A stretch of DNA of 32,274 bases from Patescibacteria group bacterium (GTDB taxonomy: Bacteria; Patescibacteriota; Patescibacteriia; UBA2591; CALHIP01). Made by a program: the position numbers and the translations under genes. Under the pieces are notes generated by a model, which ran no database searches, had not been told where the DNA came from, and was given only the letters and a program-made list of their open reading frames with translations. This document shows, one piece after another, positions 1,107 to 26,802 of the stretch (the stretch's first letter is position 1; each line of letters begins with the position of its first letter). The stretch is taken from contig JBKBVX010000002.1 in NCBI GenBank assembly GCA_046289355.1, forward strand, positions 1 to 32,274, given 5' to 3'.

Positions 1107-1193
1107 GCCCAGGTGGTGGAATTGGTATACACACAGGCCTGAGGAGCCTGGCCATATTTTTATGGCGTGCGGGTTCAAGTCCCGCCCTGGGCA
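1107..1193 (+). tRNA. tRNA-Leu (anticodon GAG), class II with long variable arm; no encoded CCA
   Basis: Hand-folded cloverleaf. Acceptor GCCCAGG/CCTGGGC, anticodon stem CAGGC/GCCTG with loop CTGAGGA, long variable arm GCCATATTTTTATGGCG, T arm GCGGG-TTCAAGT-CCCGC. Confidence 0.9.
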
Positions 1194-1197
1194 ATTA

Positions 1198-1271
1198 GGG
1201 CCGGTAGCTCAGTTGGTTAGAGCGCTACGATGGCATCGTAGAGGTCGTGGGTTCAAATCCCATCCGGTCCA
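1198..1271 (+). tRNA. tRNA-Ala (anticodon GGC); no encoded CCA
   Basis: Acceptor GGGCCGG/CCGGTCC gives the G3:U70 alanine identity pair. Anticodon stem CTACG/CGTAG with loop ATGGCAT, T arm GTGGG-TTCAAAT-CCCAT. Confidence 0.9.
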
Positions 1272-1278
1272 ATTTATT

Positions 1279-1352
1279 GGGCTCGTAGCTCAGTTGGTTA
1301 GAGCGTTACGTTGACATCGTAAAGGTCGCCCGTTCGAATCGGGCCGAGCCCA
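1279..1352 (+). tRNA. tRNA-Val (anticodon GAC); no encoded CCA
   Basis: Acceptor GGGCTCG/CGAGCCC, anticodon stem TTACG/CGTAA with loop TTGACAT, T arm GCCCG-TTCGAAT-CGGGC. Confidence 0.9.
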
Positions 1353-1360
1353 TTTTTTAT

Positions 1361-7130: not shown

Positions 7131-9104
7131 ATGAACATTTCTGAATTGGCCAGAAAATTAAAAGTCACTACCAAGGAGCTTAAAGAAAAATTACCTGAGC
7201 TCGGATTTGACATTGGTATGAAAGCAATTCAGATTCCTGATGAACAGGCAAAGAAAGTAATAGAAGCTTGGCAAGCAAAAAAGAAAGAAGAAGAGAAAAA
7301 AAGATATTTGGCTGAACTCAAAGAAAAATTAACTAAAAAAGAAGTTTTAAAAGAAAGAAAAATCACTATTCCTGAAGTTATTACTGTCCATCAGTTGGCA
7401 GAAAAATTAAATTTACCTGTAACTAAAGTTATTCAACAATTAATTAAAAATGGTGTCTTAGCCACCATTAATGATAATTTAGATTTTGAAATTGCTGTCA
7501 TTATCGCTGAACAACTTGGCTTTAAAGTTGAAAAAGAAACAGAAGAAAAAATTGAAATAGAAAAAGCATCTAAATTAAAAGAAAAATTAGAAAAATTATT
7601 AAAAGAGGAAAATAAAAAATTGTTAGAACCAAGACCTCCGATAATTGTAGTGATGGGCCATGTTGATCATGGTAAAACTTCCCTTCTTGATTTTATTCGC
7701 CAGACTCAAATTGCCTCTCAAGAACCAGGGGCAATTACTCAACATATTGGTGCCTATCAGGTCTCTAAAAATAATCGTCTTATTACTTTTATTGATACAC
7801 CAGGCCATGAAGCTTTCAAAACATTAAGAATGCGAGGTGGTCAAGTAGCAGATTTAGCTATTTTAGTCATAGCGGCTGATGATGGTGTCCAAGAACAAAC
7901 AATTGAATCTCTAAAAATTATCCAGAAGGAAAATTTACCTTTTATTGTAGCCATTAATAAAATCGACAAACCAGAAGCAGATCCAGAAAAAATAAAAAAA
8001 CAATTGGCTGAATTGAATCTTACTCCTGAAGAATGGGGTGGAAAGACAATTTGTCAAGAAGTCTCAGCTAAAACAGGGCAAGGAATTGATAAACTTTTAG
8101 ATTTAATTCTGTTAGTCGCTGATTTAGAAAAAGAAAAATTGATGGCTAATTTAAATCGACCAGCCATTGGAACAATCATTGAGGCCCATTTAGATAAAGG
8201 GGAGGGGCCAGTTGCTACAGCAATTATTCAAACCGGTAAATTAAAAATTAAAGATTTTATTATAGCTGGCGAAAGTTATGGCCGAGTTAGGGCTCTTCGC
8301 AATTGGCAAGGAAAAGATGTCAAAGAAGCTGTGCCAGGAATGCCTGTGAAAATAATTGGGTTTAAAACTTTACCAATAGTCGGAGAAATCTTAGAAGTAA
8401 AAAGTGAAAATGAATTTAAAAAAATAAAAAAAGAAATAAAAATAAGAAAAGAAATTTTAAAAAAGGGGTCTATTCTCCAACAAACTGAAAAAGAAGAGAC
8501 AATTAAATCATTAAATTTAATTTTAAAAGCTGATGTTTTAGGTTCATTAGAATCTTTAATTGAAGGAATCAAAAAATTAGAAATACCAACGGTAAAGATA
8601 AATATTGTTAAAAGTAGACTTGGTCCAATTAATGAAATTGAGGTCATTGAAGGAAAAAATCTATCAGCTATTATTGTTGGCTTTAATGTTGGGATTTTAA
8701 AAGAAGCAAAAAAGATTGCTGAAAAAGAAGGGGTGAAAATCTATCTTTCGAATGTTATCTATGATCTCCTGGAAAAAATAAAGAAGGAGATAGAAAAAAT
8801 AAGTGGACCAAAAATTAAAGAAATTCTTTTAGGAAAATTAAAAATTTTAGCTACCTTCAGAAAAGGAGATAATTTTTCTATTGTTGGTGGTAAGGTCTTA
8901 GAAGGAAAGATAAAACCAAATTCAAAAATAAGAATTTGGCGGAATAAAGAAATTATTGGTGAAGGGATATTGGCTGAATTACAGATCAATAAAATAAAAG
9001 CAAAAGAAGCATCTGAAGGAGAAGAGTGTGGAATAAAATATCAAGGAAGTGAAGAAATAAAAATAGGAGATATCTTCGAAGTTTATATAGAAGAAGTAAA
9101 GTAG
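7131..9104 (+). CDS. infB: translation initiation factor IF-2
   Basis: G-domain motifs VVMGHVDHGKTSLLD, DTPGHEAF and NKIDK, followed by C-terminal IF-2 domains. I prefer ATG 7131 (MNISELARKL...) over the track's TTG at 7071. The 20 extra residues are hydrophobic junk and overlap the promoter-like sequence. Confidence 0.9.
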   Translation: MNISELARKLKVTTKELKEKLPELGFDIGMKAIQIPDEQAKKVIEAWQAKKKEEEKKRYLAELKEKLTKKEVLKERKITIPEVITVHQLAEKLNLPVTKVIQQLIKNGVLATINDNLDFEIAVIIAEQLGFKVEKETEEKIEIEKASKLKEKLEKLLKEENKKLLEPRPPIIVVMGHVDHGKTSLLDFIRQTQIASQEPGAITQHIGAYQVSKNNRLITFIDTPGHEAFKTLRMRGGQVADLAILVIAADDGVQEQTIESLKIIQKENLPFIVAINKIDKPEADPEKIKKQLAELNLTPEEWGGKTICQEVSAKTGQGIDKLLDLILLVADLEKEKLMANLNRPAIGTIIEAHLDKGEGPVATAIIQTGKLKIKDFIIAGESYGRVRALRNWQGKDVKEAVPGMPVKIIGFKTLPIVGEILEVKSENEFKKIKKEIKIRKEILKKGSILQQTEKEETIKSLNLILKADVLGSLESLIEGIKKLEIPTVKINIVKSRLGPINEIEVIEGKNLSAIIVGFNVGILKEAKKIAEKEGVKIYLSNVIYDLLEKIKKEIEKISGPKIKEILLGKLKILATFRKGDNFSIVGGKVLEGKIKPNSKIRIWRNKEIIGEGILAELQINKIKAKEASEGEECGIKYQGSEEIKIGDIFEVYIEEVK

Positions 9105-9106
9105 TT

Positions 9107-10021
9107 TTATTTTCGGTAAAACTGAGCTGCTTTTTCCGGTGGCAAAGAATTGACAATAATCCCTGAACCAAGTTCAACACCAGCCCAAATTGATTCACGT
9201 GGCTGGATTTTTAAATAAAAGTGTTGATCTGGATCATGAACAATTTGATGGAAGAAAAAATTGTATTCCAAATTTAAAATAAAAATTTTAACTAAAATTT
9301 TTTTTAAAACTTTAGCAAAAGAAATAGTTTCTTTTTTTGTTAATTCAGTAATATTATCAACATGTCTTCTTGGTAAAATCCAGGCTTCATAATGATATTC
9401 AGAAGCATAAGGACAAAAGGCAACTATTTCTTTATTTGAAAAAATTTTTCTTGGTCCTTTTTCTTCTTTTTTTAAGATTTGACAATAAGGACAAACTCCT
9501 TTTTCTGATTTATATTTTCTCGCCGCTGACTGTTCCTCAACAACTTCCGGTGGTAAAATCTTTGAGGCAAAAACTTGAGAATGGGCATGAATTAAAGTAG
9601 CACCGGCTTTAGAACCTTCATTTTTAAAGACCAAGATGTATTCAATATCTTTAATTTTGGAAAGATTTTTAATTCGATCTTTGTAAACCTCAAGAAGACC
9701 AACTATTTCTTCTAATTTAAATTGGGCTAATTGTTTAAAATGATCAGGAGTATCAATCAAAACTTCATGTTGACCATAGGCTTTTGGATTATCTAAGGTG
9801 ACAATTGGATATTTATTTTTTAAAGCCAAATATTGCCAATTTTTTAAAGAAGGATAGGCTTTAATAACTAAATTTTTCTCAATATGAGAAGGGCAAAATG
9901 GACAACTTTTTTCAGGAATAATAATAGCCTTAGCAATTGTCCCTCGTGGTCTTTTTGCCCGACCTGGAGTAATAATGACATATTTATCTAAGAAATAATG
10001 TTTACGAATTTCTGATTTCAT
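9107..10021 (-). CDS. galT: GalT-superfamily hexose-1-phosphate nucleotidyltransferase / NDP-sugar phosphorylase-like enzyme
   Basis: 304 aa with a CPFCP zinc motif, HEVLIDTPDH and the His-x-His-x-Gln active site (IHAHSQV). Its start lies 20 nt inside the end of the upstream glgA-like gene. It is the last gene of the glucan operon. Confidence 0.75.
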   Translation of the reverse strand: MKSEIRKHYFLDKYVIITPGRAKRPRGTIAKAIIIPEKSCPFCPSHIEKNLVIKAYPSLKNWQYLALKNKYPIVTLDNPKAYGQHEVLIDTPDHFKQLAQFKLEEIVGLLEVYKDRIKNLSKIKDIEYILVFKNEGSKAGATLIHAHSQVFASKILPPEVVEEQSAARKYKSEKGVCPYCQILKKEEKGPRKIFSNKEIVAFCPYASEYHYEAWILPRRHVDNITELTKKETISFAKVLKKILVKIFILNLEYNFFFHQIVHDPDQHFYLKIQPRESIWAGVELGSGIIVNSLPPEKAAQFYRK

Positions 10022-11480
10022 AATTTAAGAGTTTTTTATAAAGGGATAAATATTTTTTAGCAGAAATCTGCCAAGAAAAATTTTTCCTCATTGCTTTCTT
10101 TTGAATGATTCGCCAGATCTTTTTATTTTGAAAAATTTTAATCGCCTTTTTAAGAGTAATCAACAATTCATCAGAACTGTATTTTTTAAAAACAAAGCCA
10201 GTTCCTTTAACTTTATTGTTTATTACTTTAACATTTTCGACGGTATCTTTCAAGCCACCGACTGCTCGAACAACAGGAATTGTTCCATATTTCATAGAGA
10301 TCATTTGACCTAAACCACAAGGTTCAAAACGAGATGGCATTAAAAATAGATCTGCTCCAGCATAAATTTTTTGGGCCAGTTTTGCGTCAAAACCAATTTT
10401 GGTATAGACATTTTTTGGATATTTTCTGGCCAAATCTAAAAGTTGATTTTCGTAAAAATCTTGTCCCTGCCCTAAAAAAACAAACTGAACACCAATTTTT
10501 ATTAGCTCCGGAGCAATTTGGACAATCAATTCAGAACCTTTTTGATCAGTCAGTCGCCCGACAAAACCAAAAATTGGAGAAGAAGAAATTGGTAAATGAC
10601 AATTTTCTTGTAAATCTTTTTTGTTAATTTCTTTTCTCTCTAAAGTTTTGATTGAATAATTAATTTTAATTTCTTTATCATTTTCTGGTGAAAACCTTTC
10701 TTCATCAATACCATTTAAAATGCCAAATAAATCTTTTTTTCTTTTTTTCAATGTCTTTTCTAAACCTTCGCCAAATTCTTGAGTCAAAATTTCTTTAGCA
10801 TAAGATGGGCTGACTGTATTAATCAAATCAGCATTAAGAATTCCTTGTTGGAGAAGATTAAGATCTAATTGTTCTGGACCAAATTTTATTTTTAAAGATT
10901 CATTTTCATTACCTTTTAGTCCAAGGAAATCAAAAATTTTTTCGGCCTGCCATCTCCCCTGATTAGCTAGGTTATGAATGGTCAATAAACTTCGAATTTT
11001 GAATTTTAAATTTTGGCTTGGTAATTTTATCAAAAGTGGCAAAATTGCGCAGTGCCAATCCTGACAATGAATAATTTCCGGTTGCCAATTTAAGAGAGGC
11101 AAAATTTCTAAAATTGATTTTGAGAAAAATAAAAAACGCTCTATTTCGATAAATTTCTCAACGAAGGCAGTTTTTTCAAAATAAATATCACCACTGCTTA
11201 AGTATTTCTTATTTTCAATTAAATAAACTAAAACCTCAGATTGAGGAATTTTTGTTTTATAAATTTTTATCAATTCATCAACTTGGCCGAATCTGATCCT
11301 TTTTTCATTTAAAAATTTAAGCGGATATTTTTTCTCATCAATAATCTCATAACGGGGTAAAACAACTCTAATATCAACACCTAATTTTTTTAAAGCTTTT
11401 GGTAAGGCACCGGATACATCCCCTAAACCACCAACTTTAGCTAAAGGAGTTAATTCAGAAGTAGCAAAAAGGACTTTCAT
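10002..11480 (-). CDS. glgA: glycogen/starch synthase (GT5, GlgA-like), paralog 1
   Basis: 492 aa. N-terminal KVLFATSELTPLAKVGGLGDV (K-x-GGL motif), HCQDWH, TIHNLANQG and C-terminal PSRFEPCGLGQM. Confidence 0.9.
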   Translation of the reverse strand: MKVLFATSELTPLAKVGGLGDVSGALPKALKKLGVDIRVVLPRYEIIDEKKYPLKFLNEKRIRFGQVDELIKIYKTKIPQSEVLVYLIENKKYLSSGDIYFEKTAFVEKFIEIERFLFFSKSILEILPLLNWQPEIIHCQDWHCAILPLLIKLPSQNLKFKIRSLLTIHNLANQGRWQAEKIFDFLGLKGNENESLKIKFGPEQLDLNLLQQGILNADLINTVSPSYAKEILTQEFGEGLEKTLKKRKKDLFGILNGIDEERFSPENDKEIKINYSIKTLERKEINKKDLQENCHLPISSSPIFGFVGRLTDQKGSELIVQIAPELIKIGVQFVFLGQGQDFYENQLLDLARKYPKNVYTKIGFDAKLAQKIYAGADLFLMPSRFEPCGLGQMISMKYGTIPVVRAVGGLKDTVENVKVINNKVKGTGFVFKKYSSDELLITLKKAIKIFQNKKIWRIIQKKAMRKNFSWQISAKKYLSLYKKLLNYEIRNS

Positions 11481-11486
11481 AGAAAA

Positions 11487-12368
11487 CTATCTTTTAATTT
11501 TTGACAATAATTTTTTAATTTCTTTGTCAATGCCAATTTTAAAATATTGCCAAAGACTTCTAATAGGAAAACCCCATTCTTCTGGTAAATCACCATGGAA
11601 ATCAGAGCCAATACTGACAAGAAATCCTAATTCTTTAGCTATTTTTTGATAATGCTCAATATTAGCCCAATTATGATGAGAAGAAATAGCTTCAATACCA
11701 TCTAATCCTTTTTTCTTTAAAATTGGAAAAAGCCAATCATCTCGCCAACTAAGTTGTTGAACTGGATGAGCCAGCACAACTAAACCACCAGCTTTTTTAA
11801 TCAAATCAATAGCTGTAGGAAGAAAAATTTCACTTTTTTGCCAAATTTTCTGAGCAGATTCAAGAAAATAACGCTTAAGAATTTCTCCAGAAGTAATAAT
11901 TTCTTTATTTTTGAAATCTTTTCTTATTTTTTTAAAATTAATAGGGTTATCCTTAATTAATTCCACTATCCAACTGATTCCTAAATAGGAAGGTAAAAAT
12001 TTGTCCTTTCTTTTTTCTATTATCCAACCATCTTTTTCTATTTCTTTGAGATACTGAGCAACTCTTTGAGCATGTTTAATCTGATTTTCTTTAAAGAAAA
12101 GATTGATTTTTTTATCTTTCGGATCAAAATTATATCCCAAAATATGAAGGTGATAATTTCTAAAAAAAGTATAAATTTCCACTCCAGGAATAACCTTTAT
12201 CCCAAACTTTTTACCAAAATCAATTGCTTCTTTTATCCCATCAAGACAATGGTGATCAGTTAAGGAAATAACAGAAAAACCATTTTTCTTTGCTTTTTTT
12301 ATTAATTCTTGAGGCGAATAAATACCATCAGAATAAAAAGAATGAAGATGAAGATCAATATATTTCAT
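11487..12368 (-). CDS. PHP-domain metal-dependent phosphoesterase (COG0613/TrpH-like)
   Basis: 293 aa with YIDLHLHSFYSDG, ISLTDHH, VIPGVEI, LAHP and GSDFHG, the histidine/aspartate clusters of the PHP fold. Its ATG overlaps the kinase TGA (ATGA). Confidence 0.8.
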   Translation of the reverse strand: MKYIDLHLHSFYSDGIYSPQELIKKAKKNGFSVISLTDHHCLDGIKEAIDFGKKFGIKVIPGVEIYTFFRNYHLHILGYNFDPKDKKINLFFKENQIKHAQRVAQYLKEIEKDGWIIEKRKDKFLPSYLGISWIVELIKDNPINFKKIRKDFKNKEIITSGEILKRYFLESAQKIWQKSEIFLPTAIDLIKKAGGLVVLAHPVQQLSWRDDWLFPILKKKGLDGIEAISSHHNWANIEHYQKIAKELGFLVSIGSDFHGDLPEEWGFPIRSLWQYFKIGIDKEIKKLLSKIKR

Positions 12369-13405
12369 AGTTTTAGATTGATTAATTCTTTTTCTGCCAA
12401 ATCAAGACTCTTTTTGACAGCTAAAATTTTGTCTTTTGGTGGCCAGATCACAAAAGATAAAATACCAGCCATTTGTAAAAAGTTTCTTATTTTAAAGAAT
12501 TTTATTCTTATCCACTCACTTTTTCCTATCTTTTTTTTAAAATAGTTTTTTAAAAAGATATTTTCTATATTTTTTTGGTAAAGTAAAAATTTCTTAGGAA
12601 GATAATATCTTAACATTGATTCAGTTTGAGCTAAAAATGAGGCAACGTCATTTAATGGATCATAGAGATCACTTTCGCTAAAATCAAGAATTTTTATTTT
12701 CTTTCCACTAAGAATAAGATTGCCAAAATGAAAGTCACCATGGGTTAAGATATAATCATTTTCTTTAAGAAAAAAGTTTTTGTTTCTTTCCCTAAATTTT
12801 TTCAATGAATAATAAATTTTTTTCATTCTTTTTTCAAAAGAAGGTAAACATTTTCTTATTAGAAAAAACCAATGACGATGTTCTTTTTCTTCTTCTTTTT
12901 TATTTTTAATAATAGGAAAATCTTTAATTTTCAAAGAATGGAATTTCTTAAGGAGAAGACCAATTTGAGGAATAATTTTTAAAATCTTAGAAATCCTTTT
13001 TTCTTGAAGAATATCTTGTAAAGATTTACCTTTTATTTCTTTATAAAATACTACATTAAAAGAAGGAAGATAATCTAAAATAACTGGTATTTCTTTAAAA
13101 CAATTTTTCTTTAAAAGTTTTGCCACTAAAAACCATCTTTTTGGCACTGTTGTTAAAGCATTGATTTTAGCTAAAACATTTTCTTTTCTTTTATATCTTC
13201 CAAAATTTAAAAATAATTTATATCTAATGGTCAAATTTTTAAATTTGCCTAAAAAATTTCTTAATATCTCAATTTCAAGATCATCTATTTTCGCCCCAGG
13301 AAAATATTTTTTTATTTTCCGATTAAAAAGGTTAATTACCCAATCTTTATCTAAAAACTTTTTTATCTTTTTTTTGCTGATTTTCTTTTTCAACTTAATA
13401 AACAT
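12365..13405 (-). CDS. APH-fold (aminoglycoside/choline/maltose-kinase-like) phosphotransferase
   Basis: 346 aa with the catalytic loop THGDFHFGNLIL and the metal-binding segment ILDFSESDLYDPLNDVASFL. The substrate cannot be read from the sequence. Confidence 0.7.
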   Translation of the reverse strand: MFIKLKKKISKKKIKKFLDKDWVINLFNRKIKKYFPGAKIDDLEIEILRNFLGKFKNLTIRYKLFLNFGRYKRKENVLAKINALTTVPKRWFLVAKLLKKNCFKEIPVILDYLPSFNVVFYKEIKGKSLQDILQEKRISKILKIIPQIGLLLKKFHSLKIKDFPIIKNKKEEEKEHRHWFFLIRKCLPSFEKRMKKIYYSLKKFRERNKNFFLKENDYILTHGDFHFGNLILSGKKIKILDFSESDLYDPLNDVASFLAQTESMLRYYLPKKFLLYQKNIENIFLKNYFKKKIGKSEWIRIKFFKIRNFLQMAGILSFVIWPPKDKILAVKKSLDLAEKELINLKL

Positions 13406-13407
13406 AT

Positions 13408-15357
13408 CTAATTTATAAGTTTAAATCCAGTGATTTTGAATTTAAAGGCAAAAAATTGACGATAAGGAATTTCAACTCTTTTATTTTTGAAAAATTTTTC
13501 TTTCCATCCATTATCTTCTATCAAAATTGATAAACTGATTTTTTTCCCTTTATTTTTATCAAGAGATTTTAATAAATTCAAGAACCAAAAAATAAAGGAA
13601 TTTTCAGTAAGATTAATTATTATTTTTTTGCCTTTTACTTTATATTGACATTGATTTTTATTGCCATAAATTCCTTCTTGAGGAAAACAAGCACCGGAAA
13701 AACTATTCCATCCATCATTTAAATAAAATTTTATCTCTTTTGAAGGAAACTCACTAAGATAGAGATTACCATTTTTATCCTGAGATAAACCTAATGGACC
13801 TAATTTCTTTTGTAAAAGAGATCTTTTAATTGCCTCTTTTAGTTTTAATCTTTGTTCTTTTAAAAATTTTTTCTCTGAAAAATCCTCGAAAGATTTTTTA
13901 ACTAATGGAGAAAATTCATCAATCGAATGTTCATAAAAAGATTTTAGAGATGGAAGTTGACGGACAATTCTTAAATCATCAACAACATGTAAAACATCAT
14001 AGATATCAGTTCCTTCTTTTAATTTATAAATTGCATCTCGCCATTTAATTGCTTTTTCAAATTCTAAATTTTCAATTGCTTTTCTCATTTCATCTTCAAA
14101 TTCTAAAATCATTAGATTATACCAATCAGTTGGTGTTCTTCTTTTAAAAGGGATCTTTTCCTTAGTTTTATAAAAATTTCGATAAATTTCTCTAATTTTC
14201 CCACTTCTTTGCCAATCAAAGGCAATTTTTAAAATATCTTGGTAATATTTTTCAGCTCTTTTTTTCGCTTTTTCATCTGGCATCAAAAAAATTATTTTTT
14301 TCAAATTATAGGCACCTTGCTCAATCATTTCTAAACTCCACCAAGGCATAGCTGAGGCCCACCAATACTGATCAGAAGAAATTGCTTTATCTAATTCATC
14401 TCTAATTTTTTGATAATTTTTAAGTTTTTTATTTTTTTCTACTTCATTAATAACAAAATAAGTAAATTCCCATTGGAGTTGATGAATTGGATTCTTTGGA
14501 TGTTGCCAAAGAATAAAAGGAGAAAATTCTCCTTTTTCTTTTTCTTTTATCAACCAGAAATCTTGTTCTTCTGAAGACCAAGTAGAGGGGCGAGGAATAA
14601 TTTTTTCCTTGCTCTTAAATTTTTCTAAAATTTCAGAAATTTTTACTTTCTTAATAGATTTGTCTTTAAAAATTTCTTGGAAAAATTTCTCTAAACCTGG
14701 ACGATGATGTCCAAAAGTCTCTGCATCCATGACAGTTAAAAGATATCGATTTTTTCTTAGATCATCTTTTAATTCAATTTTTAATGAATTTATATTTCTG
14801 ATAATAGCTGAAAGAATCAAAACACTAATTCTTTTATCGCGGAAAATAATATAAAAATTAGAAAGATTTTTAATTTGATAAATTTTTTGAAAATCTGGTT
14901 TTTGTGGAGAGGCTAATTCCTCAGCTAAAATATATTTAAAACCTAATTTTTTAGCTATCTGAGCAACTTTAAAATCATAAGCCAATTCTGGTGAGAAAAA
15001 ACCTTTTGGCTGATAAAGATTACCAAAATATTTTCTACTTGTTTTATTATTAATTAAAATCTGACGCTTAATTTCTGACTCTGGTAAAAGAGGCAAAAAA
15101 GGATGATATTTGGCTGAACCAGTGAATTCAATCTGACTGCGTTTTGCCAAAAACCTAAAGTCATCAATCACATCTTTATAACCATTTTTTTCTAAAATTT
15201 CTAAAAGACCAGCATTGATATTAACTGTCATTTTAGCCTTTGGGTTATCTTTTAAGATTTTTAATAATTTCCGATAACTTTCATTAACAACTCTTTCTAA
15301 GATATCTTTTTGCTGAAAATATGGTTGATAGAAATGGAGGAAAATAGACCAGAGCAT
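13408..15357 (-). CDS. GH57 family glycoside hydrolase/transferase, long form with a UVR-like motif and an unassigned C-terminal domain
   Basis: 649 aa. The five GH57 conserved regions are recognisable: HFYQP, QIEFTGSAKYHPFLP, GFFSPELAY (nucleophile-position Glu), MDAETFGHH (acid/base-position Asp) and SSDQYWWAS. Residues about 413-446 (MILEFEDEMRKAIENLEFEKAIKWRDAIYKL) look like a UVR motif. The last ~135 aa are beta-rich and unassigned. Confidence 0.85.
   Translation of the reverse strand: MLWSIFLHFYQPYFQQKDILERVVNESYRKLLKILKDNPKAKMTVNINAGLLEILEKNGYKDVIDDFRFLAKRSQIEFTGSAKYHPFLPLLPESEIKRQILINNKTSRKYFGNLYQPKGFFSPELAYDFKVAQIAKKLGFKYILAEELASPQKPDFQKIYQIKNLSNFYIIFRDKRISVLILSAIIRNINSLKIELKDDLRKNRYLLTVMDAETFGHHRPGLEKFFQEIFKDKSIKKVKISEILEKFKSKEKIIPRPSTWSSEEQDFWLIKEKEKGEFSPFILWQHPKNPIHQLQWEFTYFVINEVEKNKKLKNYQKIRDELDKAISSDQYWWASAMPWWSLEMIEQGAYNLKKIIFLMPDEKAKKRAEKYYQDILKIAFDWQRSGKIREIYRNFYKTKEKIPFKRRTPTDWYNLMILEFEDEMRKAIENLEFEKAIKWRDAIYKLKEGTDIYDVLHVVDDLRIVRQLPSLKSFYEHSIDEFSPLVKKSFEDFSEKKFLKEQRLKLKEAIKRSLLQKKLGPLGLSQDKNGNLYLSEFPSKEIKFYLNDGWNSFSGACFPQEGIYGNKNQCQYKVKGKKIIINLTENSFIFWFLNLLKSLDKNKGKKISLSILIEDNGWKEKFFKNKRVEIPYRQFFAFKFKITGFKLIN
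14338..14395. repeat. 58-nt block, 56/58 identical to 15580-15637 (copy 1, inside the long GH57 gene)
   Basis: Direct reading: ccaccaaggcAtagctgaGgcccaccaatactgatcagaagaaattgctttatctaat versus the same string with G and A at the two capitalised positions. The last 39 nt are identical. Confidence 0.9.
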
Positions 15358-15360
15358 ATT

Positions 15361-16575
15361 TTATTTTAATATCTTACCACCAAAATATCTAATTGGTTCA
15401 TTTTTAAGATAACTTTCTTTTAACTTTTTGGCATAACCAGAATTTTGCCATTCTTTAGCCATTAAAATTATTTTATTTTTCAATTTTTCTGCTTTTTTAA
15501 AAATTTTTTCATCTAAATTTTTTAATTTTTTTAACACTTCAATAAACATTTCTGCTCCTTGTGAAATAATTTCTACTGACCACCAAGGCGTAGCTGAAGC
15601 CCACCAATACTGATCAGAAGAAATTGCTTTATCTAATAATTTTTTTGCTTTTTTATAATTTATATCTTTCTTTGAATTTTCAATTTCCTTTATTACTAAA
15701 TAAGTCAATTGCCATTGAGCTTGATGAATAGGATTTTCTGGATGTTGCCAGAGATTAAAGAAAATTTTTCTTTTTAATTCCTCTTTTTTTGACGCCCAAG
15801 AACAATTTAATGGTTCAATAATTTCTTCTCTTTGATAAATTTTTAATAATTCAGAGATAGTTATAGTTTTTATTTTTTTTATTAATTTTTCAAAGATTTT
15901 TTCAGTTCCTGGTTTATGATGACCTAAATTTTCACCATCGAAAGCAGTAATAAGAAAATTATCACAGCGACCATCGTGTCTTAAAGCTTGCCAAAATTTT
16001 TCTTCTGAATCAAGCCAGCCAGTGAAAAAAATATCGGAAAGACCTCGATTACGGAAGACAACTTTTAATCTACTTCTTTTAATTCGATAATTTTTTTCAA
16101 AACTTACTTCACCAATCCTACCTTGATAAGCAATTTCATCTAAAATCAGCCATTTATAACCTAAAGATTGAATAATTTTGGCTATCTTTTTATTATAGGC
16201 CATCTCTGGAGGAAAAAAACCTTTTGGTCGCCAGACTTCCTCAAAATATTTCTTATTTATATTTTCATTTAATCTGATTTGGCGAATAATTTCTTTTTGA
16301 GGAATAAGGGGTAAAAGAGGATGATAGATAGCTGAACCAACAAGTTCAATCTGACCATTTTCAACTAATTTTTTTATTCTTTTTAAAATTTCTTTAAAAT
16401 CATTTTTTACTAAAAGTTCAGTTAAACTTCCACAAATATTTAAAGTAATTCTTGCTTTTTGATTCTTTTCTAATATTTTAAGAATAGGTGAATAAGATTC
16501 TCGAACAACCTTTACAATAATTTCTTTTTTTTGCCAGTGAGGTTGATAAAAATGAAGGAAAGGGGACCAAAGCAT
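15361..16575 (-). CDS. GH57 family glycoside hydrolase/transferase, short form
   Basis: 404 aa, a paralog of the N-terminal 400 aa of the neighbouring gene: HFYQP, GQIELVGSAIYHPLLP, GFFPPEMAY, FDGENLGHH, SSDQYWWAS. Confidence 0.85.
   Translation of the reverse strand: MLWSPFLHFYQPHWQKKEIIVKVVRESYSPILKILEKNQKARITLNICGSLTELLVKNDFKEILKRIKKLVENGQIELVGSAIYHPLLPLIPQKEIIRQIRLNENINKKYFEEVWRPKGFFPPEMAYNKKIAKIIQSLGYKWLILDEIAYQGRIGEVSFEKNYRIKRSRLKVVFRNRGLSDIFFTGWLDSEEKFWQALRHDGRCDNFLITAFDGENLGHHKPGTEKIFEKLIKKIKTITISELLKIYQREEIIEPLNCSWASKKEELKRKIFFNLWQHPENPIHQAQWQLTYLVIKEIENSKKDINYKKAKKLLDKAISSDQYWWASATPWWSVEIISQGAEMFIEVLKKLKNLDEKIFKKAEKLKNKIILMAKEWQNSGYAKKLKESYLKNEPIRYFGGKILK
15580..15637. repeat. 58-nt block, 56/58 identical to 14338-14395 (copy 2, inside the short GH57 gene)
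   Basis: See copy 1. Both copies encode the GH57 region-5 peptide AISSDQYWWASA(M/T)PWW. Confidence 0.9.
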
Positions 16576-16581
16576 ATAAAA

Positions 16582-18069
16582 TTAATTAAGATGGCTAACT
16601 TTTTCGATGGCTTTTTTATATAGCTCAATATATTTGTTGGCTGGTAAATCCCAAGAAAAAACTTGGCGCATTGCTTTTTTAACTAACTTTTTCCATTTTT
16701 CTTTATATTTGAAAGCTTCAATAGCTCGAGCAATAGCAACTAAAAGATCATTCTCATGCCAATCAGAAAAAACAAAACCATTACCCTCTTCTTTTTGAGG
16801 ATCCCAATCTTTAATAGTATCAGCCAAACCACCAACTTTCCTAACAATAGGAATTGAACCATATCTCAAACTTTTAAGTTGAGAAATACCACAAGGTTCA
16901 AAGCGAGATGGAAGAAGAAAAAGATCACTCCCTGCATCAATTTTAGACTCCCAAACTTCAGAAAATGGGGTAATGTAAGCAAGTTTTTTAGGATATCTTT
17001 CTGCATTGCGGGCAAAATATTTTTCATATTCTTTTTTCCCGCTACCAACCATTATAATTTGTAAATCCATCTTTAAAAGTGTTGGTAAAATTTTGATAAT
17101 CAAATCAAAACCCTTTTGTTCAGTTAAACGGTGAGCCAAGCCAATCAAAGGAATTTTTAAATTTTCTTCTAAACCAACTTCTTTCTGCAAAGCCAATTTA
17201 TTCTTCTCTTTTTTCTCTAAAGATTGCCAGTCATAGTTAAAATAGATATTCTTGTCAAATTTTGGATTATGAACCGAGTAATCAATGCCATTAATAATTC
17301 CATAGAGATCATTTTTTCTTATCTGACAATATTTTTCTAGACCTTCGCCAAACTCAGGTGTGAGAATTTCTTCGCGATATCTCTCACTAACAGTATTGAT
17401 GATATCAGCAAATAGAATTCCTCTTTTTAAGAAATTTATAAGATTCCATTTTTCTTTCTCATTTATCTTGGGTAAAGGATTTCGACCGTTATCTCTTTTT
17501 TCTGGAGGAACAAAGCGATTATTTAATCCATGAGGACCTTGATAAGCCATATTATGGATTGTCAAAAGAGTAGGTACTTTTTTATCCTTAAAGAAAAATT
17601 TATTTTTTATCAAAAATGGGATCAGAGCAGTGTGCCAGTCATGACAATGGATAACTGAAGGATTAAGATTTAATTTTTCAATAAAAAAGAGGGAAGTAAA
17701 ACAAAAAAAATAAAAAACCTGGCCGTCGTTTTGATAACCATATAATTTTTCTCTTTTCCCAAAAAAAGAAGGTTCGGAAATTAAAAAAATAACTAATGGC
17801 TTAGGTAGTCTTTTAGTAATTTCTGTTCGATAAACTGATGATAAAAAAGATTCTCCATCAATTTCTATTTTTTCTTCTAAAATTTTTTCAATTTTATTTT
17901 CAAAAGAAGATGGCGAAATAAATCCATAAAAAGGAAGAAAAGAAAAAACCTCTTGCCCTTTTCTGATTAATTCTTTTGGCAAATGAAGAGCCACATCGCC
18001 TAAACCACCTGTCTTGGCGAACGGACTCATCTCTGCTGAAAGAGAAATAATTCTTAATTTTTTTATCAT
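16582..18069 (-). CDS. glgA: glycogen/starch synthase (GT5, GlgA-like), paralog 2
   Basis: 495 aa with LSAEMSPFAKTGGLGDV, HCHDWH, TIHNMAYQG and PSRFEPCGISQL. It is the first gene of the operon. Confidence 0.9.
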   Translation of the reverse strand: MIKKLRIISLSAEMSPFAKTGGLGDVALHLPKELIRKGQEVFSFLPFYGFISPSSFENKIEKILEEKIEIDGESFLSSVYRTEITKRLPKPLVIFLISEPSFFGKREKLYGYQNDGQVFYFFCFTSLFFIEKLNLNPSVIHCHDWHTALIPFLIKNKFFFKDKKVPTLLTIHNMAYQGPHGLNNRFVPPEKRDNGRNPLPKINEKEKWNLINFLKRGILFADIINTVSERYREEILTPEFGEGLEKYCQIRKNDLYGIINGIDYSVHNPKFDKNIYFNYDWQSLEKKEKNKLALQKEVGLEENLKIPLIGLAHRLTEQKGFDLIIKILPTLLKMDLQIIMVGSGKKEYEKYFARNAERYPKKLAYITPFSEVWESKIDAGSDLFLLPSRFEPCGISQLKSLRYGSIPIVRKVGGLADTIKDWDPQKEEGNGFVFSDWHENDLLVAIARAIEAFKYKEKWKKLVKKAMRQVFSWDLPANKYIELYKKAIEKVSHLN

Positions 18070-22258: not shown

Positions 22259-22510
22259 TTATTTTAAAGGATCCCATCCTCCTTTGCTTAAAGGATGACA
22301 ACGAAGAATTCGACCGATAGTTTTAATTCCTCCTTTTAAAATTCCATATTTTTCAATTGCTTGATAAGCATATTCAGAACAAGTGGGGCGAAATTTACAG
22401 ACGCCCGGCCAAGGATGAAAGAAAGATAAAAAACCATGATCAGGTGAAAAATATTTCTGATAAAAATTGATAAATTTTAGTATAATTTGACGAAAAAAAT
22501 ATTCAATCAT
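22259..22510 (-). CDS. yidD: membrane protein insertion efficiency factor YidD
   Basis: 83 aa with [27 protein letters not shown] and [12 protein letters not shown]. The start overlaps the pnp stop by 4 nt. Confidence 0.9.
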
Positions 22511-24660
22511 TTTTTAAAATAAATTTTTTTCCTTTTTTTATAAAAATCTAAAGGAACAGCTCGTTTTAAAGAACAATAAATTCTTCCTTGTTCATCGATC
22601 CTAATAATTTTAGCTGGAATAATCTCGCCAACTGATAAAATTTCAGAAGGATGTCTAATTCGAAAAGGTGCAATTTCAGAGATATGAATTAAAGCAGATT
22701 CTTTAAGAGGGAAGAAATCAACAAAAACACCAAAATCCACAATTTTATTAACCTTAACTTGAAAAATTTCACCAACTTTAAATTCTTTAGCTAAACCTTT
22801 AACCCATTCTTTAGCTCTTTCTAAAGATTCTTGAGAAGTTGAAGTAATAAAAACTAAACCATCTTTTTCAATGTCAATCGTTACACCAGTTTGAGCAATA
22901 ATCTCATTGATGACTTTACCACCAGAACCAATGACATTACTAATTTTATCTGGATTAATCCGGAAAGAAGTAATTAATGGTGCATACTTAGAAACATGAG
23001 GTCGGGGTTGGGGAAGAATTTCTTTCATAAAATTTAGAATTTTTATTCTTCCTTCTCGGCCTTTTTTAAGTGCATCCTCGATAATTTCTAAAGAAAGGCC
23101 ATGGGTTTTAGTATCCATTTGAATGGCAGTAATCCCAATTTCAGAACCAATAATTTTGAAATCCATGCCACCTGGTCCATCTTCTAAATCTTGAAGATCA
23201 ATGAAAGTTTTAAAATTTTTAATTCCTTCTTCATCTTCTTCTGAAGCTAAGCCAATAGCAATACCTGCTACTGGTCTAATAATTGGAACACCTGCATCCA
23301 TTAAAGCCAAAGAGGAGGCGCAAGCTGAAGCCATCGAGGTTGAACCATTTGAAGAAAGAACTTCAGAAACAACACGAATAGTATAAGGAAATTTTTCTTG
23401 CTCGGGCATAACTACTAAAAGACCTCTTTCAACTAACATACTATGACCAGTTTCTCGACGACCAGTTGCTTTTAAAGGTGAGACTTCTCCTGAGGAAAAT
23501 GGTGGAAAATTATAATGATGCATAAAGCGTTTACGACCAGATTCTTCCATTGTATCTAAATATTGTTCCATACCTGGTGCTCCTAAAGTAACAGTTGATA
23601 AAACTTGTGTCTCGCCTCGTTGAAAAAGGGCAGAACCATGAACACGAGGTAAAACACTCACACAAGCAGATAAAGGTCTAATTTCATCGAGACCTCGACC
23701 ATCGATTCTTCTTCCTTCCTTTAAAATAGCTTGGCTAATCCGACGATAAATCATTTTATTAACTTCTTCTATTGCCTTAGTTCTTTCTTCTTTGTTGATA
23801 TTCTTTTCAATTAAAATTTTCTCTAAATCTTGACGAATTTTTTCTGCTGCATTAAGGCGTTCTTCTTTGGTTAAAAGTTTTTTCTCAAATAAATATTTAT
23901 CAGCCTCCTTTTCAAAAAACTCATTAATAATTTGCTTAACTTTTTCATTTTCTATATTTTTTTCTAATTTAATTTTTTCTTTTCCAATTTCTTTTTGGAT
24001 TTTTCTAAAAAAATTATTAATCTTATTAAGATAAGGAGTAGCAAATCTAATTCCCTCTAAAATCATTTCTTCAGAAACTTCATAAGCACTGGCTTCAATC
24101 ATAATTATTCTTGAATCAGGACCACAAACAACCAAATCTAATTTACTTTTTGCTCGCATCTCATAAGTTGGATTTAAAACCCATTGGCCATCGACTTGAC
24201 CAATTCTTAGACCAGCTACTGGACCATCCCAAGGAATATCAGAGACAACTAAGGCGCCTATTGCCGCATAAAAAGCAACCATATCTGGATCATTTTCTTG
24301 ATCAATAGCTAAAACTGTAGTGATAATCTGAACTTCTCGCCGAAAATCTTGATTAAATAAAGGTCGAATAGCCCGATCAATTAATCGAGCAGCTAAAATT
24401 GCTTCATCTGGCGGTCGCGTTTCTCTTTTGATAAAACGCGAACCTTTAATTTTACCAGCGGCATAAAATCTTTCTTCATAATCAACAAGTAAAGGAAAAT
24501 AATCAATTTCTGGATGTTCTTCGCCCATCACTGCTGTGGCTAAAACAACTGTCTCACCATATTGAGCAACAACAGAGCCATTTGCCTGAGTAGCCAGTTC
24601 ACCAGTTTTAATAATTAATTTTCGACTACCGATTTCTGTCTCAAAAATTTTTTCAGCCAT
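22507..24660 (-). CDS. pnp: polyribonucleotide nucleotidyltransferase (PNPase)
   Basis: 717 aa with two RNase PH-like domains (for example RIDGRGLDEIRPL and GGMDFKI). The C-terminal KH domain contains IGSGGKVINEII and the S1 domain contains VGEIFQVKVNKIVDFGVFVDF. Confidence 0.95.
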   Translation of the reverse strand: MAEKIFETEIGSRKLIIKTGELATQANGSVVAQYGETVVLATAVMGEEHPEIDYFPLLVDYEERFYAAGKIKGSRFIKRETRPPDEAILAARLIDRAIRPLFNQDFRREVQIITTVLAIDQENDPDMVAFYAAIGALVVSDIPWDGPVAGLRIGQVDGQWVLNPTYEMRAKSKLDLVVCGPDSRIIMIEASAYEVSEEMILEGIRFATPYLNKINNFFRKIQKEIGKEKIKLEKNIENEKVKQIINEFFEKEADKYLFEKKLLTKEERLNAAEKIRQDLEKILIEKNINKEERTKAIEEVNKMIYRRISQAILKEGRRIDGRGLDEIRPLSACVSVLPRVHGSALFQRGETQVLSTVTLGAPGMEQYLDTMEESGRKRFMHHYNFPPFSSGEVSPLKATGRRETGHSMLVERGLLVVMPEQEKFPYTIRVVSEVLSSNGSTSMASACASSLALMDAGVPIIRPVAGIAIGLASEEDEEGIKNFKTFIDLQDLEDGPGGMDFKIIGSEIGITAIQMDTKTHGLSLEIIEDALKKGREGRIKILNFMKEILPQPRPHVSKYAPLITSFRINPDKISNVIGSGGKVINEIIAQTGVTIDIEKDGLVFITSTSQESLERAKEWVKGLAKEFKVGEIFQVKVNKIVDFGVFVDFFPLKESALIHISEIAPFRIRHPSEILSVGEIIPAKIIRIDEQGRIYCSLKRAVPLDFYKKRKKIYFKK

Positions 24661-25525: not shown

Positions 25526-26671
25526 ATGCGAATTGGCTTTTTCACTGATACTTATCTACCTATTACTTTTGGGACTGAAATTTCTATTGAAACTTTTAGA
25601 ATATTTTTAGAAAAGTTTGGTCACCAGGTTTTTGTTTTCGCGCCAAAATATAATCTGAATTTAGAAGAAAAAAATGTTTTTCGTTTCCCTTCAATTCGTC
25701 TTTTTAGAAGTCCGGAAAATAGACTGATGTTTTTTGGTCCAAAAGATATTAAAAAAATTATTGCTTTAAAATTAGATCTTGTCCATGCCCATACTCCTTT
25801 TTCAGCTGGTTGGTTAGCAAAAATTATTGCTAAAAAATCAAAAATTCCTCTTTTTTATACTTCCCATATTCTTTATCCAGAATATGCTCGGTATTGGATT
25901 TTAAAAGAAAATAAAATTTTGCCAAGTTTAATGAAAATCTATTTAAAAGTTTATGGTAACAGTTGTTCAGCTTTAATTGCCCCTTCTTTAAAAATGAAAA
26001 GGCTGCTTGAAGAATATGGGGTTAAAAAAAAGATTTTTGTTTTGCCTACCGGACTTGATTTTGAAAGATTTAAAAAAGTTCAAGAAAAAGATGCAGAAAT
26101 AAGAAAAAAATTTGGCATTCCTTTTGAAGCTAAAATTTTACTTTATGTTGGTAGATTAACTCAAGAAAAAAATGTTTCTTTTCTCCTTGATGCTTTTTAT
26201 GAAATCCAGAAAAAAAGAAAAAATGTCTATTTTGTTTTAGTTGGCGAAGGATATTTAATGAAAGAATTAAAAGAAAAGGTAAAAAAATGGGGGATTGAAT
26301 CAAAAGTAATTTTTACTGGAAGAATTAGTTGGGAAGAAGTAATAAAAATCTATAGACAGGCAAATATTTTTCTTTTTGCTTCTCTCACTGATACCCAAGG
26401 TTTGATTATTATTGAGGCAAGTTTTTTTGGTCTACCAATCATTGCCTTAAAAGATGACTGTTATGCCGGAATGCTTATTGATGGGAAAAATGGCTATACA
26501 GTCTATCCCTATCAAGTTTCTCTATTTGCTGAAAAGGTTTTAAATGTTTTAAATAATGAAAATCTTTATCGATTTTTTTCAGAAAATGCTAAAGAAATAG
26601 CTAAAAATTTCTCCGCTGAGAATCAGGCAAAAAAATTGATAGAAATATATCAAAAATTTATTAAAAATTGA
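25526..26671 (+). CDS. GT4 (GT-B, group 1) glycosyltransferase, glycosyl-diacylglycerol-synthase-like
   Basis: 381 aa. The N-terminus MRIGFFTDTYLPITFGTEISIETF resembles glucosyl-DAG synthases of Firmicutes/Mollicutes as I remember them. The C-terminal half has the retaining GT4 pattern (VGRLTQEKN ... LFASLTDTQGLIIIEA). Confidence 0.7.
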   Translation: MRIGFFTDTYLPITFGTEISIETFRIFLEKFGHQVFVFAPKYNLNLEEKNVFRFPSIRLFRSPENRLMFFGPKDIKKIIALKLDLVHAHTPFSAGWLAKIIAKKSKIPLFYTSHILYPEYARYWILKENKILPSLMKIYLKVYGNSCSALIAPSLKMKRLLEEYGVKKKIFVLPTGLDFERFKKVQEKDAEIRKKFGIPFEAKILLYVGRLTQEKNVSFLLDAFYEIQKKRKNVYFVLVGEGYLMKELKEKVKKWGIESKVIFTGRISWEEVIKIYRQANIFLFASLTDTQGLIIIEASFFGLPIIALKDDCYAGMLIDGKNGYTVYPYQVSLFAEKVLNVLNNENLYRFFSENAKEIAKNFSAENQAKKLIEIYQKFIKN

Positions 26672-26695: not shown

Positions 26696-26706
26696 AAAAT
26701 TAAAAT

Positions 26707-26778
26707 GCCCCCATAGTTCAACGGATAGAACACCAGTCTTCTAAACTGGATATAGAGGTTCGACTCCTCTTGGGGGCA
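26707..26778 (+). tRNA. tRNA-Arg (anticodon TCT); no encoded CCA
   Basis: Acceptor GCCCCCA/TGGGGGC, D arm GTTC-AACGGATA-GAAC, anticodon stem CCAGT/ACTGG with loop CTTCTAA, T arm AGAGG-TTCGACT-CCTCT. Confidence 0.9.
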
Positions 26779-26802
26779 ATAATTGCCACTCTTAGAAGAA
26801 AT

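Follow-up and report, generated by a model that had tools for sequence, protein, structure and literature searches.

A conserved GH57–kinase–phosphoesterase module in the α-glucan operons of Patescibacteria and its possible role in glucan phosphorylation

In a 32,274-nucleotide stretch of DNA from a Patescibacteria group bacterium (contig JBKBVX010000002.1; the window, hereafter, is this whole stretch), an α-glucan operon encodes a kinase of the aminoglycoside phosphotransferase (APH) fold followed directly by a phosphoesterase of the PHP family. We found that this pair is linked to an upstream glycoside hydrolase family 57 (GH57) gene and that the proteins occur as fusions in related genomes. 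On the strength of these fusions and of a conserved gene order, the sequences indicate that GH57, kinase, and PHP act together as one functional module. We infer that the phosphorylated substrate is a carbohydrate of the α-glucan pathway, and we tentatively favor a cycle in which phosphate would be added to and removed from the α-glucan or an oligosaccharide handled by the GH57 enzyme.

The operon comprises seven minus-strand open reading frames (ORFs) arranged head to tail in the order GlgA–GH57–GH57–kinase–PHP–GlgA–GalT-like, the same gene order as in Patescibacteria metagenome-assembled genomes. In operon order, the ORFs are spaced by gaps of 6, 3, and 2 nucleotides (nt), a 4-nt overlap, a 6-nt gap, and a 20-nt overlap. 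At the center are the second GH57 gene, GH57b (13408–15357; 649 amino acids; Pfam GH57, E = 4.1e-33), the kinase gene (12365–13405; 346 amino acids; Pfam APH PF01636, E = 3.9e-9), and the PHP gene (11487–12368; 293 amino acids; Pfam PHP PF02811, E = 1.1e-17). Stop and start codons of the kinase and PHP genes overlap in an ATGA at 12365–12368, where the minus strand reads ...AAA CTA TGA and the ATG of the PHP gene shares letters with this stop codon. The first-pass annotation had described both ORFs and this junction, and on rereading, the coordinates are correct; all motifs that it quoted for the two proteins were found again in the translations, and Pfam and NCBIfam annotation of all seven ORFs agrees with its placement of the pair in the middle of an operon of glucan genes. 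By locus coordinates, the same 4-nt overlap recurs at the related loci L001, L011, L013, L014, L015, L050, and L053 (L-numbers denote related genomic loci; P-numbers, below, denote protein cluster representatives). The GH57b, kinase, and PHP genes are co-transcribed and tightly packed, and kinase and PHP are co-translated.

The linkage extends well beyond close relatives. Related loci were annotated with the window proteins as queries, and kinases at least 75% identical were collapsed, which gave 16 lineages with kinases 21–70% identical to that of the window; a scan of genome contigs gave two loci. Close homologues of the kinase stand in the same operon, the order GlgA–GH57–GH57(UVR)–APH–PHP is conserved among the kinase lineages, and conservation of the neighborhood reaches down to ∼22% kinase identity. 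In 15 of the 16 lineages, the gene directly upstream of the kinase is a GH57 gene, and in 13, PHP is the next gene downstream or is fused to the kinase; the tightest partner of the kinase is the upstream GH57 gene. Three lineages lack PHP or have a second APH in its place. In the lineage of L003–L005, the cluster reads GlgA–GH57–GH57–kinase–GalT without PHP and the second GlgA; L008 has a second APH gene in the PHP slot (10001–12057) with a degenerate catalytic loop, HYEPYASH; and L049 encodes a fused double APH of 674 amino acids (8001–10025), the second domain of which keeps HNDFQASN. The length class of such double-APH proteins, 600–700 amino acids, accounts for 19 of the 149 listed kinase matches that were not previously known. 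Approached from the phosphoesterase, each of the three clade members that were looked up, at 40–49% identity to the window PHP, stands behind the kinase in this cluster. The related-locus scan gave 40 loci, most of them with generic APH kinases that were used as negative controls, and ten such control loci (∼8–20 kb, from the same metagenome scan) had no GH57, GlgA, or PHP neighbor. The first-pass annotation had allowed that the pair might be equally common away from glucan genes, making its position here accidental; the 15 of 16 lineages with GH57 upstream and the three of three PHP-clade members in the cluster speak for a genuine linkage.

Two further observations concern individual loci. 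L054 and L055 carry a second PHP protein of 364–365 amino acids and of the PolX/HisJ type between the TrpH-like PHP and the second GlgA (L054, 10867–11961; L055, 10867–11964), followed in L054 by a 221-amino-acid ORF without a family match. L006 (CAZMJP010000001.1) belongs to a metagenome-assembled genome labeled “uncultured Gammaproteobacteria”; this label is probably wrong, because the locus has a glucan cluster of the Patescibacteria type and the same LysM/CHAP and LeuRS neighbors as L053.

Fusion proteins connect the components physically. P0082 (735 amino acids) consists of a GH57 domain followed by the kinase, and four members of its 90%-identity cluster, drawn from NCBI, JGI, Logan, and ENA, are full-length, HPT08493.1 among them. 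P0101 (640 amino acids) consists of the kinase followed by PHP and is present on three contigs; at its loci, L056 and L057, it stands away from GH57 and GlgA genes, and a GalT-like gene, 7 kb off in L056, is the only glucan-related gene inside 10 kb. We considered a genetic-code, read-through, or assembly artifact as the source of these fusions and ruled it out, given the four full-length members of P0082, one of them annotated by NCBI, and the three contigs with P0101.

The kinase has the hallmarks of a catalytically competent enzyme. Its catalytic segment, LTHGDFHFGNLIL, spans residues 220–232, and a second motif segment, ILDFSESDLYDPLNDVASFL, is present. The catalytic loop reads H222-G-D224-F-H-F-G-N229, and D241 is the metal-binding Asp; H222, D224, N229, and D241 are invariant in two family alignments (A2 and A3), and the HxDxxxxN...D motif is intact in 104 of 110 single-domain relatives. 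PF01636 matched the window kinase at 37.1 bits (cutoff 23.2) and all 29 family members that were scanned. An AlphaFold2 model with a pLDDT of 89.1 shows a bilobal kinase fold, to which Foldseek matched choline kinases, APHs, and methylthioribose kinase with probability 1.0 and template modeling (TM) scores of ∼0.55–0.65. Identity to solved members of the superfamily is just 10–17%, both in Foldseek and in a search of the PDB with the family profile; the nearest are the ACAD11 kinase domain, APH(2''), choline kinase, the amicoumacin, macrolide, hygromycin, and spectinomycin kinases, and methylthioribose kinase. The substrates of many of the nearest characterized relatives are small molecules, phosphorylated on a sugar or other hydroxyl, and protein kinases appeared among the profile matches only at E ∼1e-5 and over the catalytic loop.

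The first-pass annotation had pointed to the maltokinase (Mak/Pep2) of the GlgE pathway as a possible counterpart, a lead for which we found no specific support. The Pfam domain Mak_N_cap matched neither the window kinase nor any of 29 relatives, and maltokinase was missing from the best 60 PDB profile matches and the best 50 Foldseek matches. Antibiotic resistance models scored far below their cutoffs (NCBIfam APH_3p, 24.6 bits vs. 205; APH(3')-I, 17.6 vs. 400), as did the NCBIfam Bud32 model. Because its matches are generic to the superfamily, Mak_N_cap is missing, and the resistance and Bud32 models stay under their cutoffs, the kinase is judged from its sequence to be an active enzyme of the APH superfamily, in a family of its own, and not a Mak orthologue. 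With the aminoglycoside and macrolide O-phosphotransferases, choline kinase, and ACAD10/11, it has in common the fold and the Brenner catalytic motif; it differs from these PF01636 kinases in its low identity, in its scores with the resistance models, in a conserved N-terminal extension and an RNFLGKF motif of its own, and in its context of glucan metabolism. In an exhaustive profile search of 1.84 billion representatives, 621 clusters matched at E ≤ 1e-3, 182 at E ≤ 1e-10, and 23 at E ≤ 1e-30; most of the matched members are 330–365 amino acids long and align to the profile from end to end. Homologues at 63–74% identity come from Patescibacteria-type contigs only, and public annotations name them “aminoglycoside phosphotransferase family protein” or “Bud32.”

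The phosphoesterase belongs firmly to the TrpH/YciV subfamily of PHP proteins. Its motifs are HLHSFYSDG (residues 7–15), TDHH (37–40), GVEI (62–65), AHP (200–202), and GSDFHG (254–259), and the ligands of the trinuclear metal site (H7, H9, D14, H39, E64, H75, H201, D256, and H258) are invariant or nearly so. The best solved relatives are all TrpH-type: its profile aligned over the full length to 2yb1 (Cv1693), 9etk, and 3e0f (E ∼1e-35 to 1e-33) and in two stretches to 7ug9 (RNase AM; E = 2e-34). The AlphaFold2 model (pLDDT 94.8) shows a distorted (β/α)7 barrel with an insertion domain and superimposes on 9etk, 3e0f, and 2yb1 with TM scores of 0.66–0.77. In the structure comparison proposed at first pass for both proteins, PHP was placed as TrpH-type; neither Foldseek nor the PDB profile searches discriminated the substrate class of the kinase. 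The best NCBIfam match of PHP was nside_bi_sphtase (E = 2.9e-40), at 138.2 bits against an equivalog cutoff of 400; RNaseRnm reached 109.3 bits (cutoff 375), and Cycl_ph_dihydrol matched with E = 2.6e-21. A homologue search set 59 clusters apart as a clade of their own (identity of 40% or more, score of 181 bits or more), which a gap in score divides from the generic TrpH proteins of other phyla and which public databases name “3',5'-nucleoside bisphosphate phosphatase.”

This name is at odds with the predicted substrate pocket. In RNase AM, R107, R110, and R141 bury the 5'-phosphate of the substrate and F161 stacks against adenine, and the corresponding residues have the same roles in Cv1693, a 3',5'-nucleotide bisphosphate phosphatase (PMC9410882). 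The three arginines correspond to R99, R102, and R134 of Cv1693, where R134 was mapped by aligning the GRxH[IF]A motif with HMMER and MAFFT. We compared the pocket column by column between the 59 clade members and 61 generic TrpH proteins. Position 99 is Arg in 58 of the 61 generic proteins and, in the clade, His in 31, Arg in 16, and Lys in 10; position 102 is Arg in 54 generic proteins and, in the clade, Trp in 17, Arg in 13, and Asn in 9. Position 131 is Arg (47) or Lys (8) in the generic proteins and never Arg in the clade (Phe 20, Leu 19, Ile 6, Val 6), and position 164 is Phe in 49 of 61 generic proteins and Ile in 42 of 59 clade members. The window PHP has H99, R102, I131, and L164 at these four positions, and basic residues remain at positions 99, 104, and 105. 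As a further discriminator, we tried the Arg three residues past the histidine of AHP (R201 in RNase AM) and dropped it, since generic TrpH proteins also vary there.

In exchange, the clade has gained a signature of TDHN (N40), EIY66, Y128, AHPGQQLSW208, W234, W273, and Y275, which includes six conserved aromatic residues, the pattern that would be expected of a carbohydrate- or sugar-binding site. Compared with Cv1693, RNase AM, and the TrpH/YciV group at large, the clade has the same fold with insertion domain and the same nine metal ligands and differs in the replaced Arg/Arg/Arg 5'-phosphate pocket and stacking Phe, in this signature, and in its apparent confinement to the glucan cluster. 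PHP appears to keep the metal chemistry while lacking the residues that define the group of 3'-phosphoadenosine 5'-phosphate (pAp) phosphatases and RNase AM. The chemistry on pAp or RNA 5' ends that the first-pass annotation had quoted for TrpH-type enzymes probably no longer applies to this protein, because the nucleotide pocket has been lost. Elsewhere in the family, P0272 is a generic TrpH protein fused to an APS-kinase/AAA_33 domain (PF01583, PF13671); this fusion fits a role of ordinary TrpH enzymes in the metabolism of pAp and 3'-phosphoadenosine 5'-phosphosulfate, in contrast to the glucan clade, where the fusion partner is an APH kinase.

The remaining operon genes set the module in a context of α-glucan metabolism. 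The first gene encodes GlgA1, a GT5 glycogen/starch synthase (16582–18069, minus strand; Pfam Glyco_transf_5, E = 2.7e-59; TIGR02095, 490.7 bits, cutoff 328), and a second GT5 glycogen synthase, GlgA2, follows PHP (10002–11480, minus strand; TIGR02095, 526 bits); the two are 39% identical. GH57a (15361–16575, minus strand; 404 amino acids; Pfam GH57, E = 2.2e-39) belongs to an uncharacterized GH57 subfamily, is 44% identical to GH57b, and is distant from solved GH57 enzymes (1k1w, E = 3e-10). The catalytic Glu and Asp of GH57b align with E123 and D214 of 1k1w. Both paralogues gave weak matches to branching-enzyme models, and by our own reading of the motifs, their catalytic sites appear to be of the branching-enzyme kind. 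GH57b has, in addition, a helical motif of the UvrB/UvrC type (residues 419–448; Pfam UVR, E = 6e-6), which recurs in the orthologues of L006, L008, and L049–L055, and a C-terminal extension of ∼200 amino acids without a Pfam match; the extension is confined to some lineages (642–684 amino acids vs. 452–495 amino acids in other orthologues).

The last gene (9107–10021, minus strand) encodes a GalT-like, HIT-fold hexose-1-phosphate nucleotidyltransferase or phosphorylase (Pfam GalP_UDP_transf, E = 1.7e-14; DUF4931_N, E = 3.6e-9), which scored slightly under the cutoff of TIGR00209 (96.2 vs. 102.1 bits). The operons of the window, L001, L002, L008, L049, L051, and L054 end with such a gene, and in the operon of L003 such a gene comes right after the kinase; in L006, L013, L015/L053, and L050, none is adjacent. 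A GH15 glucoamylase gene, not present in this window, is frequent in related clusters and sometimes precedes the operon, and a gene for a ROK-family sugar kinase (putative glucokinase) is close by in several clusters. GlgC, PGM, GlgB (GH13), and GlgP were not seen in the sampled flanks of the loci; within 10 kb, the window, L001, L002, and L049–L055 have no GH13 branching enzyme, GlgC, or GlgP; and neither the window operon nor the Pfam-annotated flanks of related loci contain GH13 (the Alpha-amylase family), GlgE, or TreS. With two GlgA and two GH57 paralogues, GH15, the GalT-like protein, and the ROK kinase and without GH13, GlgC, and GlgP, the layout looks archaeal; a paper on the glycogen cluster of Sulfolobus (PMC8158581) may serve for comparison.

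Under the cycle that we tentatively favor, the kinase would act beside GH57b and use ATP to phosphorylate a hydroxyl of an α-1,4-glucan chain or of a malto-oligosaccharide bound or released by GH57b. PHP, descended from nucleotide bisphosphate phosphatases and with its nucleotide pocket lost, would take the phosphate off again. In this way, the cycle might govern how soluble the stored glucan is, or how accessible, to the GH57 enzymes and to the exo-acting GH15 glucoamylase. We prefer this reading because the closest partner of the kinase is a polymer-active enzyme, because a dedicated phosphatase travels with the kinase, because many of the nearest characterized relatives esterify sugar hydroxyls on molecules that resemble oligosaccharides, and because in some lineages, the exo-acting GH15 would need phosphate removed, just as β-amylase depends on removal of phosphate by SEX4.

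The cycle would be a functional analogue, with unrelated folds, of plant GWD/PWD with SEX4/LSF2. In these systems and in that of laforin, as in the proposed module, an ATP-dependent enzyme esterifies a storage α-glucan and a dedicated phosphatase removes the phosphate, alongside glucan hydrolases; the tandem and double kinase variants of the module recall the pair of GWD and PWD. The known systems are those of plants and animals, whereas the host here is a bacterium. They also use a PPDK-type dikinase where the module has an APH, or eukaryotic-like, kinase and a dual-specificity phosphatase where the module has a trinuclear-metal PHP barrel. Pfam finds only APH and PHP domains in the two proteins, with no dual-specificity phosphatase domain and no CBM20, CBM45, or CBM48, and the relation is one of analogy. 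The fuller proposal, that Patescibacteria reversibly and covalently phosphorylate their storage α-glucan by an APH-fold “glucan kinase” docked on or fused to GH57 and a PHP-fold “glucan phosphatase,” convergent with GWD/SEX4 and laforin, we regard as plausible but less likely than not.

Several points weigh against a glucan cycle. Fold and motif cannot tell a glucan kinase from a kinase of free sugars, and Pfam finds no carbohydrate-binding module on the kinase or on PHP. The phosphatase is not obligatory for the kinase, because it is absent from L003 and replaced by a second APH in L008 and L049. Fused and acting on one site, kinase and phosphatase would together amount to a futile ATPase in the absence of regulation, and the APH–PHP fusion of L056/L057 stands apart from GH57 and GlgA genes. 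Finally, since the GH57 enzymes have motifs like those of branching enzymes, the glucan may be ordinary soluble glycogen that needs no solubilizing phosphate.

The main rival reading, which we judge somewhat unlikely, makes the module a supply line of sugar phosphate for nucleoside diphosphate glucose (NDP-glucose). The kinase would be an anomeric (C1) kinase akin to the APH-fold enzymes NahK, MtnK, and Mak and would convert glucose released by GH57 or GH15 to glucose-1-phosphate; alternatively, it would convert glucose-6-phosphate to glucose-1,6-bisphosphate, which PHP would trim to glucose-1-phosphate, in parallel to HldE/GmhB in ADP-heptose synthesis, where kinase, phosphatase, and nucleotidyl transfer follow one another. 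The GalT-like enzyme would then make NDP-glucose for GlgA, bypassing PGM and/or GlgC, which accords with its presence in the operon of the window and several loci and near the APH–PHP fusion and with the lack of GlgC, PGM, GlgB, and GlgP in the sampled flanks. The lnpABCD operon of Bifidobacterium, in which the APH-fold sugar kinase NahK is encoded together with the GalT-like nucleotidyltransferase LnpC, is a precedent. TrpH-type enzymes typically act on sugar bisphosphates (pAp, or the phosphoribosyl cyclic phosphate of the Cycl_ph_dihydrol match), the basic residues kept at positions 99, 104, and 105 of PHP also speak for this reading, and the APH–PHP fusion is easier to explain by a kinase and a phosphatase working in sequence than by two enzymes that oppose each other. 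Yet the trio of GH57b, APH, and PHP persists without adjacent GlgA2 and GalT (L006, L015/L053, L050, and L013), the glucose-1-kinase variant gives PHP no role, and the bisphosphate variant is broken in the lineages without PHP (L003, L008, and L049). The ROK-family kinase near several clusters is a further difficulty, the fusion to GH57 is poorly explained, and we detected no closeness in sequence to NahK, which, like Mak, is not among the best structural or profile matches.

A route resembling that of maltokinase is distinctly less probable. Here, GH57b would release maltose or a short malto-oligosaccharide, the kinase would make the α-1-phosphate, one of the GH57 paralogues would take it as an activated donor, as GlgE (GH13_3) does maltose-1-phosphate, and PHP would clear excess toxic sugar-1-phosphate or a reducing-end phosphate. 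Fusions and complexes of TreS and Mak, joining a GH13 enzyme to an APH-fold kinase, are known from the GlgE pathway (PMC11046441). The GH57–APH fusion and adjacency mirror this arrangement of a glycoside hydrolase-family enzyme beside or fused to an APH-fold kinase in an α-glucan pathway, and the two uncharacterized GH57 paralogues, with catalytic Glu and Asp intact, are candidate transferases. The module differs in having GH57 in place of GH13, a dedicated phosphatase, no N-terminal cap domain on the kinase, and no GlgE or GH13 at any of the loci; the absence of Mak from the best structural matches and the two NDP-glucose-type GlgA synthases, which already cover chain elongation, also count against this route. 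To our knowledge, no GH57 enzyme uses a sugar-1-phosphate donor.

It is improbable, too, that the pair is regulatory, with the kinase phosphorylating a protein of the cluster (GH57b or GlgA) and PHP serving as the cognate protein phosphatase, so that the pair would switch glucan synthesis or degradation. The APH fold is that of eukaryotic-like kinases, and the weak matches of the kinase include Bud32, RIO, Pkinase, and a kinase of the spore coat (YtaA, 2q83). The PHP-family proteins CpsB and YwqE are protein tyrosine phosphatases, fused kinase–phosphatases that act on a single protein are known (AceK and HprK/P), and the degenerate second APH of L008 resembles a pseudokinase partner. Against such a role, kinases of small molecules make up all of the best matches by profile and by fold, with protein kinases confined to the low-scoring catalytic-loop matches; PHP is TrpH-type with an insertion domain and not of the CpsB/YwqE type; and a regulatory kinase fused to its glycosidase target would be unusual. 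Least probable by far is an accidental meeting of an antibiotic- or choline-type kinase with a housekeeping pAp phosphatase or RNase AM, as the public names of both families and the nside_bi_sphtase match might suggest. The scores fall far short of the equivalog cutoffs (138 vs. 400 and 109 vs. 375 for PHP; 24.6 vs. 205 for APH(3')), and PADLOC found no defense-system match. The gene fusions, the loss of the nucleotide-binding residues, and a neighborhood kept to ∼22% kinase identity have already largely refuted this explanation.

The rest of the window adds few features. Its base composition is ∼30% G+C. An Rfam scan of the operon found no riboswitch or other RNA family, and a scan of the operon region for promoters and terminators gave results at chance level. 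Terminator-like hairpins lie within the GH57b coding region at 14515–14536 and 14586–14616, one of them readable on both strands; the scanned region holds 8 such hairpins, a modest excess over the 4.1 ± 2.3 expected from shuffled sequence. Over the whole window, Rfam found no family besides tRNAs, which form a cluster of tRNA-Leu(GAG), tRNA-Ala(GGC), and tRNA-Val(GAC) at 1107–1353 (plus strand) and a lone tRNA-Arg(TCT) at 26706–26779 (plus strand). A GT4 glycosyltransferase gene (Glycos_transf_1/Glyco_transf_4; 25526–26671, plus strand) ∼7 kb from the operon adjoins the genes for PNPase (22507–24660) and RNase Y (29047–30573).

Reversible glucan phosphorylation is central to the turnover of plant starch and to human Lafora disease, and we know of no dedicated bacterial enzymes for it. 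The first-pass annotation had noted that either of its two readings would be new for this pairing of enzymes; our literature searches returned no description of the module, the kinase, the PHP clade, or a bacterial glucan kinase or phosphatase. In a 2024 survey of the α-glucan enzymes of prokaryotes (Chemical Reviews), APH comes up solely as the maltokinase fold. Known beforehand are the concept and the superfamilies; the undescribed parts are the enzyme family, the substrate pocket, and the module. The analysis defines a kinase family of ∼180 clusters (E ≤ 1e-10), a PHP clade of ∼59 clusters, and their nearly constant GH57 partner, all in a bacterial radiation that ranks among the largest uncultured ones, and it corrects database names (“3',5'-nucleoside bisphosphate phosphatase,” “aminoglycoside phosphotransferase,” and “Bud32”) that are generic or misleading. 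The PHP clade also appears to be a clear case of a metal centre kept while the substrate pocket was exchanged. The components are small soluble proteins, so the question of the substrate is directly testable. Whatever that substrate is, whether glucan, oligosaccharide, or hexose bound for NDP-glucose, the module represents an unannotated, conserved step of α-glucan metabolism that current pathway reconstructions of Patescibacteria miss.

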